DNA of 64,000 nucleotides from positions 448,001-512,000 of the forward strand of contig CAWAMW010000017.1 in NCBI GenBank assembly GCA_963783305.1, in the 5' to 3' direction. Position numbers: made by a program. This stretch comes from an uncultured Gemmatimonadales bacterium (GTDB taxonomy: Bacteria > Gemmatimonadota > Gemmatimonadetes > Longimicrobiales > RSA9). Below, piece after piece: positions 39,501 through 51,500 of this stretch (positions are counted from its first letter, which is position 1; every line of letters begins with the position of its first letter).

Positions 39501-42500
39501 TCGCGTCCCACCATCTCCAGCGCGTCATCGCCGTTCGTGGTGGTGTCCACCTGGTAACCGCGCTGGCGCAGGAAGAGGAGGTGGGGCTCCAGAAGCTCCA
39601 CCTCGTCATCCACCCACAGGATCCGACGATCGTTGGCCATTGAGGGAAGCTACTCCTCCGTCGGGGACGCCGCGAGGTATCGCTCGTGCGCTCGACGAAC
39701 TCGCTCCAGCACCGCTTCCACCGTCACCCGCGACATCCCGTCCGGCCGGTACTCCATGCTCGCCTCGTACTGCTCGCCCTCGTGGCGCGCGTACCCGTCC
39801 ACCACCAGGTCCTCGAACGCCCGGTAGGGCCCGTACCGCTTCGGGTTCGTATACCCGTACAGCCCGACCACGGGGGTCCCCAGCGCCCGCGCCAGGTGCA
39901 GCGGCCCGGTGTCCGGGCTGATCACCAGTGGCGCCCCCTCCAGAGTCCAGACCAGACGGCGGAGGTCGTCGCCCAGCGCGTCCACCACCGCCGCGCCGGT
40001 CCGCGCCAGGATCGCATCCGCCATCTCGCGCTCCACGGCCGAGGGGCCGCCCACGATCACCGGCCGCATCCCGAACTCCCTCTCCACCGCATCCATGACC
40101 CGGGCGTACCCCTCCGCCGTCCAGTTCTTCGCCGGCTTGCTCGTCCCCACCACGAACGCGCACGCCGGCCGGCCGAGTGAGTCGAAGAACGCATCGCGGG
40201 CAGCCCTGTCCCCATCGCTCAGCGGAACACGCCACTCCACCGGCTCCGGGTCGACCCCCAGGTGCTCGAGGAACTCGAAATACTGGTCCTGCACGTGCTG
40301 GACGGGGTGGGGCGCGATCCGCTCGTTGGTCACCAGCCAGTTCAGGTCCCGGGCCCGCCCCCGGTCGAACCCCAGCTTCACGTCCGCACGCGTCAGCGCG
40401 GTCAGGAGCCCCGCCTTCGCGTACACCTGGAGCCCCAGCACCAGATCGAACCGCCGCTCCCGCAGCTCCACCGCCGCGTCCCGGAACGACCGCCACGCCG
40501 ATAGCCCTCTCCGACGACGGAACACCACGAACCGGTCCACCGCCGGATGTCCCCGCACCAGCCGATGCGGCACCGGCTGAATCAGCCACGTGATCCGCGT
40601 GTCCGGCCACGCCCGCTTCAGCGCGTTCACCACCGGCAGCACATGCACCGCGTCGCCCAGCGCGCTGAGCATCACGATGCAGACTTCCGCCGGCGGCTCC
40701 TCCCTGAACCTCTCAACCGCGCTCATATCCAATGTCGAATGCACAATCCGAAATTTGAATTTGAATTTGAAGTGGATGCTTCTCTGCTTCCACCCTAGGT
40801 GTCACCGCTCGATACTCGATCCTCCATACCCGTCCCGAAAAGCCTGCACCACCCCATCCGCCAGCCGCCGCCCCGTACTTCGTTCCCACTTCCGCGCCGA
40901 GCGCCAGAACCGATCCAGCATCCGCCTCCGCGCCCGGTCACCGACCCGGGACCGGATCGACGCCCGGTCCAGATCCAGGATCAACGCGCGCGAATCGCCG
41001 GCGGCCCCGGAGTGCGCGCCGTCGGCGATCAGGATGTTCTTGAGGTTCAGGTCCCGGTGGACGCCGCCCCGCTCGTGCAGCAGCCTCACGACCGAGCCTG
41101 CCGCCCGCATGGCCTGGGCGGGATCGAATGGAGAGGTTTCGAAGAGGACACTCGCCAGGTCACGGGACCCCGCCACGTACTCGGTCACCAGGTCACCCCG
41201 GTACCACGGGCCGCTCCCGTACACGGCTCCGCCCACGTGCCGCGGCGTCGGAACGCCCATTCCCTCCAGCGCCCGTCCCACCCCGAACTCCCGCACCGGT
41301 CGCGGAGTGCCCAGCCGCAGGTAGCGGTCGTCCAGCAGGGACGCGATGGCGCCGCCCCGGTGGTAATGCCGCACCGCCCAGAGCCCAGAGCCCACCAGCG
41401 CGGGTACCACGAAGACCCGCCCACGGCCTTCCAGCGTGGCTGCTGCCGGGTGCGCCGCCGCCGCATCCGCCAGCGTGCCGGCATCGCGGACCCAGCTTTC
41501 CAGCGCCTCGCGCGCGCCAGGTCGCGCGACGATCTCCGTCGTCCGGTTCAACACCTGACCCGCTCATGTCAAAGGGACTCTCGTGCGCGGCTGCGGCGCA
41601 GGACGGACCCGTGAAGGATGACCACCACGCCGGCGGGCGGCAACACCGTTCCGGCCGTCCGGGGGAGCGACCGTGGCGGGTTGACGTGCCGCTACCTCCT
41701 GTGGGACGGCGGGTGTTCCGGCGACTCAGCCTCTGTCCGGTGCGCCAACGGTAGCGCGCGACCGCGAGCTGGTGGGGGGCGTCGCCCCGGTGCGGAGCCC
41801 GGGGCGGAGGTGAGGACTGCGGGAGTGGCCCAGCTCGATAGGCAGCGCCACACGTACCAGGACGGTCAGGGCGAACAGTCCCATCGCCCAGATCCCGGCC
41901 GTCACGGCCAGCTCGTTCCGGGTCGGGAAGTACTCGACGATCTCGCCCAGGGGAGAGGGAATGAAGCCCGGCACCACCAGCCCCATCCCCTTCTCGATCC
42001 AGATGGCCACGAACAGCACCAGTGCCGCGGGCATGAGCCAGTGGAAATCGCGCCGGAGCGGGTGGATCGTGAGGATGAGCGTCGCCAGTACGTTCAGCAC
42101 GATGGCCGTCCACACCCACGGCACCAGCGCGTTGTGGCCGTCCAGCCCGAAGAACAGATACTGAGCGTTCAGGCTGTGGTGGGTGGGGAAGTAGAACTTA
42201 TAGAAGAGCTCCGAGGCCAGCATGATCAGATTGATCTGGGCGGCCACGGTGGTGATCAGCGCGAGCTTGGAGAACGCGCCGTCGGGGATCTCGTAGCGCG
42301 TCTCCATCCGGATGAATCCGAGCAGTAGAAGCATGAACGCTGGCCCCGCCGTGAACGCCGACGCCAGGAAGCGGGGGCCGAGGAGTGCGGAGTTCCAGAA
42401 CGGCCGGGCGGGGAGCCCCGAGAGCAGGAACGCCGTCACCATGTGGATGCTCACGGCCCAGAACACGGAGATGTAGATGAAGGGCACGTACGCTTTCGTC

Positions 42501-48500: not shown

Positions 48501-51500
48501 GGGGCTCGTTCCGATGGTGGCACGCAGCGCAGTCCGCCGCGGTCCAGCTCATCCGCGACCGGTGCCGCTCGTCCCGGCTGTGGCAGATCTCGCAGTCGAC
48601 CCGCCGGTGACGCGCGTGCTCAAACGCGCGCCGCCCCTCGACGGCGCTGACCCCACCCCCCGGGACCGGGCCCTGGGCGCGCAGCGGTGCGGGAACAGGC
48701 AGGGCCACCACCACGCACAGCGCCAGGACCACCCTCGCGATCCACCCGGAGCGCGCCATGGCTACCGCCCCGACTCCCCGACGCCGCCGGGGCACCCAGA
48801 CTCGCGCCCGAAGGTCATGCGACGCAGCCGGTCACGACCGCCCATGGGTGGCCTTCGGACGAACCTCCGTCGACGGATGACGCCGGTGCCACGCCCGAAG
48901 CGTCAGGAGCCCGAGCACCCCGACGGGCCCTGCAATCCAGACGGTCGCCCCCAGCGCCATGGCCGCCGCCGCCGTGGCGGTGGGCCGGACGCTCGTCCCC
49001 CAGATCTCCGGACGAGTAAACAGGAACGCCGGGGTAAGGACCAGGAGCGCCAGACCCAGCACGAGACCCAGGGCGCGGGCGTCGGGCCAGCGCCGGAACA
49101 GGTTGCGAGCGGCCTCCACGGTCTCCTCGATCGCCCACCACAGGATGAGGGCGGCGGCCAACCAGCCCACCACCGTGACCGCCACCGCCGCCACCCGGCC
49201 GCTCATGGCCGAAACCGCCGACAGGGTGATCATCATCGCCACGATCCACCCCACCACTACCGCAGGGATGTCGTAGAGTAGCGACAGCGCCAGCCGCCGG
49301 AGCGCCCGCTGACGGGACACGTCGGGGGGACGCCCCAGGTAGGCCAGCAGGGACCCGTGCACGAATCCCACGAGCGAACCGGCGATGAAGAAGACAGAGG
49401 TCGTGATGAAACTCACACTGGAGCTGAGGCTGCCGGCCGCCACGTGCGCCGTCACCACCAGCGACGCCACCAGGCCGCCGGCGACGCCCCAGGACGTCGC
49501 CACCTGCCCCACCAGCCCCAGCTGTCGAGTAAGGAATCCTGATCCGGTCGGTCCGTCAGCACTGAAGGCCATGGACCACCTCCCGATCCTCGGGAGCGCC
49601 TGCCCCGATCCGTTTCCGGACGGGGCGCTTCATCTATCGATCAGGTCGAACGTGAAGAGGATGGGGTCGGATGGGCCGGCGACGGGTTCATCGTGCGGGG
49701 GGGACCGCGCCAACCTGTATGAAAGATGGGGGACCCGCTGGCGGCCCCTCAATCGGGAAAACCGTTGAAATCCCGGTAGGGAGGCGGCCGATACACCTGT
49801 AGGGAAAACTCCCTCACCGATTCAGGGGGAGCGGCGGAAAATCTCCCTACACGCCCAGGGGGACCGTGAGGATGAAGCGACTGCCTGAGGCCCCCTCGCT
49901 CTCCACCGTAACATCGCCACCCAGCTGCTGCGCCATGCGCCGCGCAATGCTGAGACCGAGACCCGTGCCCCCGGCCTGCCGGGTCGATGACTGATCGACC
50001 TGCCAGAAGGCATCAAAGACCCGCTCGTGATGCTCCGGCGCGATTCCGGGGCCGGTGTCCTCGACGGCGATGCGCAGCCGGTCCTCCCGCACTCGCGCGG
50101 TCAGCACGACCCGGCCCTCCGCGGTGAACTTCACGGCGTTCGCTACGAGGTTCGAGACGATGCGAAGCAGTCGCTCGCGGTCGCTCGAGATCTCGACATC
50201 GTCCACCTCCACCTCCAGGCGGATCTCCTTCGCCTGCACCGAGGGCCGCAGCATCCCCGTGATCTCGTCGATGAGCGCCGGGAGGTGGATCCTCTCCGCC
50301 TGCAGCTCCAGCGGCCGGGTGTCACTCCGTGCGAAGACGAGGATATCATCGATTATGCGGAGCAGGTGGTCGGCGCTCTGCTTGATGCGGTCGATGTGCG
50401 AGCGCTGTCGCTCCGTCAGCTCCTGCTCCACGCCCATTTCCAGCAGACCGGCGTAGCCGATGACCGCGTTCAACGGCGTCCGCAGCTCATGGGACATCAC
50501 GGCGAGGAAGTCGGTCTTCGCCTGGCTGGCGGCGCTGGCCGCGTCGCGCGCCTCCCGTGCCTCCCGAAGTGCGACCTCCATCGCCCGCTGCCGCTGGGCA
50601 ACCTCCCCGGCCAGGCCGCGGATGTCGCCGCTCGCGCTCTCCAACTCCCGCTGCAGGCTGTCGCGCACGTCCCGAAGCTCGGCGTTCGCCTCTTCCAGCT
50701 GGACCCGACGGACCTCCGACTCCCGCGCACTTCGCACGAGCCGCAGCGCACGCGGGATCAACGGTGGGAGAGCAATGGCGGTCGCCACCGAAGCCAACGC
50801 AGTCACCGCCTTCACACCGCCGGCCGCCCAGTAGTCGGGATTCCAGACGGTCCAGACGGCCAGGAAGTGCGTAGTTCCGCACGCCACGATGAAAAGGCCG
50901 AACGCCAGGAACATCCATTCGAGCGGCAGCCCTCGGACCGCGTACTCCGCCCCCTCGGGGACCTCTCTTCGCGCGCGGACCACGAGCACGAGGAGGGCGA
51001 CCGCTATGCCGTAATACGCCATGCCCGTCAGAGAATCGGAGAGCACGTGGAGCCAGAGCAGATCAGGCTCCCACAGATAGCACATGCCATGCGGCATGAA
51101 CGAATCCATCGACGTCGTCTGGATCGCAAACATGGACGGTCCTCGGGTATGGGGCAGCGGGAATTATAGGGGATCCTCACCGGCAACGGCACTGCCGCCG
51201 TGCCCGGCCCGGCACACCAACGGAGGGGGCTGGCGCCCTCGAGCGATCCCGTTCCCATAGCGCGTCAGGCTGGATCGCCCTGACTCGTGCGGATATAGTT
51301 CGGCATGACCCGCGACACGGAGGCCAGGCCATAGAAGACGAACACTCGCACGTTCCGGCGTCACCGCAGGCGCGCCGCCTTTCCGCGCTGGAGGTCGAGG
51401 CGGTGATCCGTCGCGCCGTGGAGCTCCAGGTCCACGAGGGCGAGGATGCCACGAGCGCGCAGGAAGGGATGCCGGAGGGCGAGCTGACGCGGATCGGCCG

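Follow-up and report, generated by a model that had tools for sequence, protein, structure and literature searches.

Results

A NapA homologue in which serine replaces the molybdenum ligand

What is a full-length NapA for once the cysteine that holds its molybdenum is gone? The question is raised by a gene, here called napA*, that lies within a stretch of 64,000 nucleotides (the window) of the genome of an uncultured Gemmatimonadales bacterium (Table 1). The napA* reading frame contains no internal stops, and the first-pass annotation, which had placed Ser177 at the position of the Mo-ligand Cys, is borne out, as ARLSSGSA aligns without gaps to ARHCMASA of solved NapA (3ML1, 2NYA, 1OGY). In public run X1 one contig reads across the codon and differs in a single letter outside it; since X1 may be the source sample, this contig is not independent support. 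Selenocysteine at ligand positions was rejected: TGA flags fell outside the extracted reading frames, and the flagged loci read Cys. Retention of the Tat signal and of the [4Fe-4S] site had also been proposed, and DRRTF, C51/C54/C58/C86 and the bridging K88 are indeed present in NapA*. Both features are general, the twin arginines being kept in all 74 Cys-less sequences that have an N-terminus and all four Fe-S cysteines in 76 of the 76 Cys-less sequences covered there.

Table 1. Features of the napA* operon and its upstream neighbour (window positions)
Feature	Position	Strand	Basis
NrfD-family membrane subunit, DsrP-like, 428 aa	41726..43012	-	PF03916, E 1.5e-29; NCBIfam DsrP 395 bits, cut-off 350
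NrfC-family iron-sulfur subunit, DsrO-like, 374 aa	43019..44143	-	Fer4_11; DsrO 183.5 bits, below cut-off 200
cytC, tetrahaem cytochrome c, 253 aa	44140..44901	-	4 CxxCH
cytB, pentahaem cytochrome c, NapB-related family, 275 aa	44898..45725	-	5 CxxCH
napA*, NapA-fold protein, degenerate molybdenum-cofactor site, 777 aa	45722..48055	-	AlphaFold2, TM vs 3ML1
Pterin-binding patch 2, TGAVLEHTGTGT for TGRVLEHWH(T/S)G	46031..46066	-	alignment; Arg, Trp and second His lost
Pterin-binding patch 1, WDTNMAEE for WGxNMAEM	47405..47428	-	alignment; Gly to Asp, Asn and Glu kept
Codon TCC, Ser177 in place of the Mo-ligand Cys	47525..47527	-	alignment to solved NapA
Intact [4Fe-4S] motif C51-x2-C54-x3-C58...C86 with Lys88	47792..47905	-	sequence, alignment
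Twin-arginine signal motif DRRTF (residues 5-9)	48029..48043	-	sequence; export predicted from the motif
cytA, multihaem cytochrome c, 235 aa	48052..48759	-	8 CxxCH and one CxxxxCH
Membrane protein, no assigned family, 246 aa, ~6 hydrophobic segments	48832..49572	-	hydropathy scan

The AlphaFold2 model of NapA* (pLDDT 96.1) superposes on 3ML1 with a TM of 0.96, and solved NapA ranks first among its matches (TM 0.94-0.97 to 3ML1, 2NYA, 1OGY and 2NAP); because its alignment contained intact homologues, the model leans to the intact fold, and with 18 close sequences only the pLDDT was 42. NapA* scores below the curated cut-offs of TIGR01706 (703 vs 930.55 bits) and PRK13532 (712.5 vs 904), below which intact members of the short subfamily, not scanned here, may also fall. 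It is not of the TorA/DorA/BisC type, with 44 bits for TorA and 88 for the bisC family as against 712 for NapA.

The genome, which is 96% complete, holds four PF00384 matches, and napA* is the only NapA-like one, as had been claimed; judged by sequence and gene order, the other three are a formate dehydrogenase-like alpha subunit and, from two ACIII-like clusters, one large gene apiece, both clusters lying away from the napA* operon. A single-protein scan of genome contigs found no relative. The earlier label of paralogue is loose, as the genome has no intact napA.

Loss of napD

The ligand is not all that is missing. Among genome loci, napD adjoins napA in 27 of 29 Cys-bearing copies as against 0 of 50 Cys-less ones, and among metagenome loci in 72 of 78 as against 0 of 2; one intact copy, L118, is without napD. 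Pfam NapD matched none of 21 genomes with Cys-less copies, and neither Pfam nor a 102-sequence family profile detected napD in the locus or elsewhere in the present genome. No other chaperone gene stands in its place in the napA* operon. Nap activity is described as requiring NapD, which is tied to the insertion of the cofactor once the Fe-S cluster has been assembled (PMC4159696). A genome-wide loss of the cofactor pathway was rejected, moaA being found in this genome, along with moeA and a mobA-like gene, and in all 21 genomes with Cys-less copies; as the cell can make the cofactor, absence of molybdenum from NapA* is not forced.

The cysteine was lost at least three times

The earlier count holds: the Cys is missing in 25 of the best 120 hits (Y10, S6, G5, A, D, E, H), that is in 26 of 121 sequences with NapA*. 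The view that NapA* sits in a single clade with free variation at this position does not. A NapA tree built on all columns does unite 72 Cys-less sequences in a clade of 73 (support 99), and this grouping dissolves once the decayed columns are left out, and also on partner genes. On trimmed columns and, independently, on NrfC+NrfD, the napA* operon groups with intact napD-napA operons, apart from a large clade that bears the motif RLYAAS and has mostly Tyr at the ligand position (48 of all 77 Cys-less sequences); on NrfC+NrfD the intact L114 joins the napA* operon with support 99. A single origin of all Cys-less copies was rejected on NapA (AU p 6.9e-5, 35 of 215 sequences) and on NrfC+NrfD (AU p 4e-44, 44 sequences), which implies at least three losses. 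On NapA alone, the data did not reject the narrower constraint that unites the NapA* group with the RLYAAS clade (p 0.09). The trees are quick ones with SH-aLRT support only. Ser177 recurs in 7 of the 8 sequences near NapA* on the all-column tree, and on the trimmed tree those eight do not form one clade.

Two Cys-bearing loci that had been listed as counter-evidence turn out to represent this operon in its ancestral state, with napD. This form, napD-napA-napB-like-tetrahaem-nrfC-nrfD (such as L114/L246, L116, L122), is the direct ancestor type, with the same gene order and 53-68% NapA identity; unlike the napA* operon it retains the ARLCM(A/S)S motif, every pterin contact and napD. It also occurs in records from Ignavibacteria, Acidobacteria and Rokubacteria, and no paper describing it was found in the literature searched. 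NapA* shares 65% identity with its nearest intact relative, as against 82% for NrfD; from these sequences the NapA* lineage is fast-evolving.

Purifying selection on Cys-less genes

In 17 disjoint Cys-less pairs dN/dS was 0.095-0.185, compared with 0.036-0.159 in 12 intact pairs (NG86, rough at high GC3; one of 30 pairs, intact and saturated, was dropped; no low-divergence pair falls within the lineage of NapA* itself), showing that purifying selection still acts on Cys-less genes. The Cys-less median is the higher (0.135 vs 0.094, p 0.003), which indicates some relaxation. Between NapA* and its 88% relative, 3 of 152 core positions are substituted, compared with 78 of 527 variable positions (p 1.5e-6).

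These data bear on the possibility that NapA* is vestigial and slowly decaying after nitrate respiration was lost, selection keeping only the fold or downstream translation while the cytochromes and NrfCD work without it, until it is eventually deleted. Besides the raised dN/dS, decay would fit the long branch leading to NapA*, the graded loss of 8 to 48 of 204 conserved positions among Cys-less sequences, repeated independent loss (as relaxed selection is expected to give), the absence of a match in the six other genomes of the genus that were searched (72-95% complete), and damage in five fetched Cys-less loci, of which L050 and L103 are frameshifted and L051, L054 and L055 miss a stretch near residues 405-440. 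A frameshift is, however, also found in an intact copy, L136; dN/dS is far under 1 in 17 of 17 pairs, including those at dS 0.6-0.95; 152 of the 204 conserved positions are kept in at least 90% of Cys-less sequences; the Tat motif and the Fe-S ligands are retained throughout; and a large, old clade extends over several Gemmatimonadota families. We therefore think slow decay unlikely.

The cofactor site, not only its ligand, is degraded

Eight pterin-contact residues, those that also define the pterin-binding patches of Table 1, were taken from PMC13223375 and mapped through the 2NYA alignment. Four are changed in NapA* (G213 to D211, R720 to A666, W725 to T671 and H726 to G672), and N213, E216, V667, H670, K88, Q400, R408 and E409 are kept. 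All eight are kept in 135 of 138 Cys-bearing sequences (allowing Ile or Leu for Val), compared with five or fewer in 69 of 77 Cys-less ones. In 65 distant relatives of at most 37% identity the corresponding positions are G211 (100%), G363 (100%), R666 (95%), C177 (94%) and H218 (86%). RLCHAS and TGRILEHWHTG are also retained in the formate dehydrogenase-like protein of this genome; being common to these proteins, many of the lost positions belong to the cofactor rather than to nitrate.

A changed ligand would by itself be insufficient against nitrate reduction, as C. jejuni NapA C176D still turns over nitrate (kcat 0.34 vs 5.9 per s) and a Ser ligand is reported to lower kcat, not said to abolish it (PMC12769810). 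The first-pass verdict that NapA* is no canonical nitrate reductase is thus better founded than it was as argued, because pterin-binding residues and napD are gone as well. NapA* might still be a molybdoenzyme, slow or acting on another substrate, with Ser177 as ligand as in DMSO/TMAO reductase or with none as in arsenite oxidase; such sites are known in the superfamily (PMC10100899), C. jejuni C176D keeps nitrate turnover and Ser is reported to lower kcat, the genome encodes cofactor synthesis, and K88, R408, E409 and Q400 are in place. A new enzyme would, however, be expected to keep its cofactor contacts and alter the substrate channel, whereas the eight Ser-bearing sequences keep 4, 4, 4, 4, 4, 5, 6 and 7 of the eight contacts with differing substitutions, the other Cys-less sequences carry Y, F, G, H, A, R, D or E at 177, and neither napD nor a substitute chaperone gene remains in the operon, so that we rate continued molybdenum catalysis as quite improbable. 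Least probable is re-use of the emptied cavity for another small ligand or metal, as a sensor or a non-molybdenum enzyme tuned by the [4Fe-4S] cluster: the RLYAAS clade has fixed pocket residues of its own (D211 in 56 of 56, D218 in 54, G404 in 54, D409 in 54, G672 in 53) and D211 and G672 recur in the separately derived NapA*, but NapA* differs at Y218, C404 and E409, its near relatives vary at the same sites, the operon has no signalling partner, and Asp and Gly may merely stabilise an empty pocket.

The operon encodes a multihaem-NrfCD module

As first described, the operon holds three multihaem cytochromes (8, 5 and 4 CxxCH) and an NrfC/NrfD pair, in genes that overlap or nearly abut. cytA overlaps the start of napA* by 4 bases, where intact relatives have napD, the order cytA-napD-napA being seen in the intact loci L116, L119 and L177. 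Downstream, cytB-cytC-nrfC-nrfD is present in all 29 Cys-less loci with enough flank. The NrfD subunit has ~9 hydrophobic segments in a hydropathy scan and presumably carries a quinone/quinol site; the NrfC sequence contains a twin-arginine-like motif. The membrane protein gene upstream of cytA gave no Pfam or NCBIfam match and only ESM Atlas hits under 0.9 that assign no family; its homologues occur next to a 17-haem cytochrome gene (contig C15) and upstream of the L115 counterpart of napA*. Neither a sigma-70 site (within 41300-50100) nor, upstream of the operon, a sigma-54-like match was found. No RNA data set was listed as a holder of the sequence, which is no sign for or against expression.

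By its sequence, CytB appears to consist of two NapB-like dihaem repeats and one further haem. PF03892 (NapB) matches 91 of 103 members of its family at E<=0.01, not including this copy, and phmmer against solved NapB gave no match. Predicted binding of NapA* to CytB scored 0.36 (best of three controls 0.00), with runs sharing at least 92% of contacts and a partner pLDDT of at least 65. Among 157 solved complexes 116 reach the binding mark, as do 2 of 215 mismatches; only 18 of these solved complexes and both mismatches reach it with scores of 0.60 or less; since NapAB structures exist, the pass may reflect likeness. The prediction thus hints that CytB may bind NapA*. Two NapB-interface residues of C. 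sphaeroides were uninformative: they map to R79 and G744 in NapA*, and neither is listed as invariant in the mostly intact alignment A2.

Discussion

NapA* resembles NapA/NapAB (3ML1, 2NYA, 1OGY, 2NAP; TIGR01706) in predicted fold, Tat motif, [4Fe-4S] ligands, Lys88 and a downstream gene for a NapB-related cytochrome, and departs from them in the Cys ligand, four of eight pterin contacts, napD and the curated cut-offs. Its operon fits none of the four nap operon types of PMC13223375, NrfC/NrfD and extra multihaem proteins replacing NapC or NapGH. It also recalls the DsrJOP part of DsrMKJOP, as its NrfD passes the DsrP cut-off and its NrfC is closest to DsrO; a complete dsrMKJOP is present separately in the genome, next to dsrAB, and its DsrP is 46% identical to the operon's NrfD; the napA* operon has no dsrMK.

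ACIII and Qrc likewise combine multihaem, NrfC-like and NrfD-like subunits. QrcB of QrcABCD, which we take to be cofactor-less, is named 'molybdopterin-binding-like' in NCBIfam. ActB (alternative complex III), FhcB and Nqo3/NuoG are MopB subunits without the cofactor, and ActB is placed near ArrAB (PMC10100899). ActB/QrcB-type subunits have the molybdopterin-oxidoreductase fold without catalysis inside an electron-transfer complex, as we propose for NapA*. The ancestry is another: NapA* scores 66 bits on the QrcB model (cut-off 440), against orthology with ActB/QrcB, and 712 on NapA, and in contrast to them it keeps the N-terminal [4Fe-4S] ligands, arose recently and repeatedly, and has intact sisters still extant. 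Residue loss, napD loss and gene order fit a molybdenum-free working like that of ActB/QrcB, with a weak predicted binding of CytB.

By this analogy we favour, at somewhat better than even confidence, the reading that NapA* acts as a scaffold, bearing a [4Fe-4S] cluster but no molybdenum, in a module that joins quinone, NrfCD and multihaem cytochromes for electron transfer; both the missing cofactor and the role are what we infer from sequence. NapA* would be a molybdenum-free descendant of periplasmic nitrate reductase; the Cys-less copies derive, by at least three separate losses, from the intact operon. Exported folded and holding only its [4Fe-4S] cluster, NapA* would stay attached to CytB and provide structure or docking, much like ActB in alternative complex III. 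Electrons could run in either direction between the quinone pool, NrfD, NrfC, the tetrahaem and the pentahaem cytochrome (held by NapA*), and on to CytA and an outer-membrane barrel-cytochrome cluster, being exchanged with something other than nitrate. The [4Fe-4S] cluster would more likely serve folding than act as a through-wire, because without molybdenum it has no known exit. The outer-membrane cluster is encoded elsewhere in the genome, outside this locus; since it also flanks the intact operons L116, L118, L122 and L159, it is not specific to the Cys-less state.

Databases name the Cys-less proteins nitrate reductase. In a Gemmatimonadota sample 44 of 401 genomes matched, and in at least 22 of the 44 the match is a Cys-less copy; napA hits in this phylum have been interpreted as a role in nitrate reduction (PMC11316326), from sequences that may or may not include Cys-less copies. 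We found no paper on Cys-less NapA in the literature searched, which lacked most subscription papers. A full-length NapA copy that has lost both its molybdenum site and its chaperone probably plays a structural role in an electron-transfer chain, and such copies are probably counted wrongly as nitrate reductases.

In ActB, FhcB and NuoG the change is ancient and the catalytic ancestors are distant, whereas in NapA* it is recent, repeated, graded and tracked by napD loss, which makes the transition from catalytic to structural subunit testable. More tentatively, Gemmatimonadota may have converted functional nitrate reductase into a scaffold without cofactor at least three, perhaps six times, leaving a Qrc/ACIII-like complex in which NrfCD and a chain of multihaem proteins would connect the quinone pool with a barrel-cytochrome conduit in the outer membrane, so that electrons can be exchanged outside the cell. 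If this is true, intact, partly decayed and fully converted forms coexist, and the birth of an ActB/QrcB-type pseudo-enzyme could be traced step by step.

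NapA* has lost the Mo ligand and part of the pterin pocket

The first-pass annotation had described NapA* as the only NapA-like protein of this genome, carrying a serine in place of the Mo-ligating cysteine, and both statements hold: NapA* stands alone among four PF00384 matches, and a gap-free alignment sets Ser177 (ARLSSGSA) against the cysteine of ARHCMASA. The [4Fe-4S] site and the Tat signal, which it had described as kept, have their four cysteines and Tat motif intact, as is Lys88. The best sequence match is a solved NapA, and the predicted fold (pLDDT 96.1) gives a TM score of 0.96 to 3ML1. 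In the best 120 of 2560 matches 25 rows are Cys-less, the same number as counted before; the Cys-less NapA is real.

The ligand change alone is not decisive, because C. jejuni NapA C176D retains a low turnover of nitrate and a serine ligand is reported to lower kcat (PMC12769810, available text). According to the available part of a 2026 review (PMC13223375), two patches together hold eight conserved residues that contact the pterin. Mapping through an alignment to 2NYA (offset 36), which reproduced all eight, revealed that four of them are changed in NapA* (Gly213 to Asp211, Arg720 to Ala666, Trp725 to Thr671 and His726 to Gly672). The set aligned for comparison comprised 215 de-duplicated sequences, 138 with the cysteine and 77 without it, after exclusion of 8 loci that were partial, frameshifted or distant. 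All eight contacts are kept in 135/138 Cys-bearing rows, and 69/77 Cys-less rows keep five or fewer.

The change extends further. NapA* is changed at 25 of the 204 positions that 97% or more of the Cys-bearing rows keep; by a 52/152 split that was defined with NapA* included, 24 of these 25 lie within the 52 positions lost group-wide by Cys-less rows, and 151 of the remaining 152 are kept. Conservation of many lost positions extends to 65 distant relatives and to the formate dehydrogenase-like protein of this genome, and these positions are therefore part of the cofactor site. NapA* also has alanine at the position of Glu193 while Arg408 and Glu409 are kept. Taking Cys140 to be the ligand of D. 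desulfuricans NapA, we infer from the offset to the ligand cysteine that Glu193 would be the counterpart of its substrate-channel Glu156.

napD is missing beside Cys-less copies

Intact copies are directly preceded by a small gene, napD (PF03927, E 7e-11). Using a profile built from these same loci, and with kinship among loci making the counts non-independent, napD adjoins 27/29 Cys-bearing and 0/50 Cys-less genome loci of the subfamily having at least 300 bases upstream, and, among 80 metagenome loci, 72/78 Cys-bearing and 0/2 Cys-less ones. In 21 genomes that carry Cys-less copies Pfam detected no napD, and it also missed one known copy (in genome G239); in the present genome neither Pfam nor the family profile found the gene. 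Three intact loci have the order cytA-napD-napA, whereas here cytA overlaps the start of napA*, by four bases. Nap activity requires NapD, whose proposed role is in cofactor insertion, following Fe-S assembly (PMC4159696, available text). The cofactor pathway is present.

Cys-less copies are retained

By NG86, dN/dS lies at 0.095-0.185 for Cys-less copies (17 disjoint pairs) and at 0.036-0.159 for intact ones (12 pairs). Constraint on Cys-less copies is thus relaxed yet far from neutral; they are kept and not simply rotting. The Tat arginines are kept in 74/74 and the Fe-S cysteines in 76/76 covered Cys-less rows. For the lineage of NapA*, for which the comparison uses protein data only, NapA* differs from an 88% relative at 3/152 core and 78/527 variable positions. 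The long branch leading to NapA*, and frameshifts or an internal deletion in five fetched Cys-less loci, speak against retention.

The ligand was lost more than once

A single Cys-less clade, as first proposed, is recovered on all alignment columns, where one branch holds 72/77 Cys-less rows (support 99), but it is broken up on trimmed columns. In the trimmed tree (52 decayed positions and their neighbours removed; 65/215 rows used), NapA* is nested among intact sequences in a 15-row group (SH-aLRT 98), separate from the RLYAAS clade, the large Cys-less group. On NapA alone, a constraint joining only the NapA* group and the RLYAAS clade was not rejected (p 0.09), while holding all Cys-less rows together was (p 6.9e-5), with six changes of state.

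The partner genes NrfC and NrfD give an independent answer by their phylogeny: several origins, not one. Their tree (44 rows) places this operon with a Cys-less operon (L115) and an intact one with napD (L114), support 99; its starred branches force three changes, and one Cys-less clade is rejected (p 4e-44). We read the changes as losses, since it is implausible that the ligand, a dozen pocket residues and a chaperone gene were all regained. A third case of Cys loss is L162. Its sister L118 (= L059) is an intact NapA for which no napD is found in the locus or, with Pfam, in the whole genome, which suggests that loss of napD can come first.

The operon and a proposed electron path

Seven co-oriented genes form the set at 41726-49572 (minus strand), and cytB-cytC-nrfC-nrfD lie downstream in 29/29 Cys-less loci having long flanks. 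The nearest named relatives come from Gemmatimonadota, including Longimicrobiales.

Genes of the napA* operon (window positions) and multihaem clusters elsewhere in the genome
Feature	Position	Strand	Basis
Membrane protein	48832-49572	-	member of seven-gene set
cytA, cytochrome with 8 CxxCH	48052-48759	-	motif count
napA*, NapA homologue	45722-48055	-	best match to solved NapA, sequence and predicted fold
cytB, cytochrome with 5 CxxCH	44898-45725	-	motif count
cytC, cytochrome with 4 CxxCH	44140-44901	-	motif count
NrfC-family protein, DsrO closest	43019-44143	-	family match
NrfD-family protein	41726-43012	-	DsrP cut-off passed
Barrel-like protein between 9- and 16-haem cytochromes (L252)	C2:439608-444072		Atlas neighbours
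17-haem cytochrome and paralogue of the window's membrane protein (L253)	C15:159743-163978

Electron flow in the intact operon would start at quinol and run via NrfD, NrfC, the tetrahaem cytochrome and the NapB-related pentahaem cytochrome to NapA; 91/103 members of the pentahaem family match NapB. Several intact Gemmatimonadota operons (L116, L118, L122, L159) share one cluster with genes for a putative outer-membrane barrel and for cytochromes of 8 to 18 haems. Such genes lie near 24/29 Cys-less and 2/12 intact loci. Because filtering on flanks removed some intact loci that possess them, and other phyla are represented among the 12, we regard the link as ancestral. This genome has the same parts at three sites, the napA* operon, the C2 cluster and the C15 17-haem cytochrome, and in L122 an intact nap operon is clustered with relatives of the C2 and C15 genes. 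The C2 protein is a candidate barrel, as suggested by Atlas neighbours at 0.92.

Once nitrate reduction had been abandoned, the module probably continued to pass electrons between the quinone pool and a periplasmic or outer-membrane haem chain, in one direction or the other, and a need of the pentahaem cytochrome, or of the complex, for NapA* would explain why it stayed. The predicted NapA*-cytB complex scored 0.36 (best control 0.00), lending weak support to their binding.

In the NrfC subunit, the first iron-sulfur motif (CKGFRNCVQAC) is apparently one cysteine short. Immediately upstream of the operon, and in the same orientation, lies the gene for a histidine kinase with an ETR1_N (ethylene-receptor-like N-terminal) domain (49847-51133, minus strand). 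Downstream, an apparently ordinary, unrelated envelope cluster (33038-41554, minus strand) encodes glycosyltransferases, an ABC-transporter-like protein, a PglZ-domain response regulator, a heptosyltransferase and a Kdo kinase. An SPFH/band 7 gene occurs near 28/29 Cys-less and 2/12 intact loci (L037-L056, L078-L157), mostly directly after nrfD; it is upstream in L115 and absent from the window.

Other genes of the genome and phylum

The genome carries a complete dsrAB, dsrMKJOP, dsrC and sat cluster (C16:79397-93108, L254); dsr genes in Gemmatimonadota were already reported (PMC11316326, available text). Two clusters resemble alternative complex III by gene order and sequence (C2:704506-712043 and C7:370343-378092). 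The phylum has a second intact NapA lineage of about 46% identity (L066-L075), its operon mostly comprising Rieske-like, cytochrome b-like, octahaem, napA and napB-like genes, with no napD by the family profile. An octahaem cytochrome of the present genome (C7:336746-338068) is 36% identical to the octahaem of this second operon type and matches the NrfA family only weakly and partially.

Comparison with known systems

QrcB is one MopB subunit without a cofactor. ActB, FhcB and Nqo3 are others, and none of those listed in the available text of PMC10100899 derives from NapA. The napA* operon differs from the four nap operon types in the available part of the review (PMC13223375) and from the Caldithrix arrangement (PMC5317091, available text). 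A literature search whose coverage stopped short of subscription papers and supplements returned no description of a Cys-less NapA. Published NapA phylogenies, in their available text, filter on the cofactor motif, a step that would drop Cys-less sequences.
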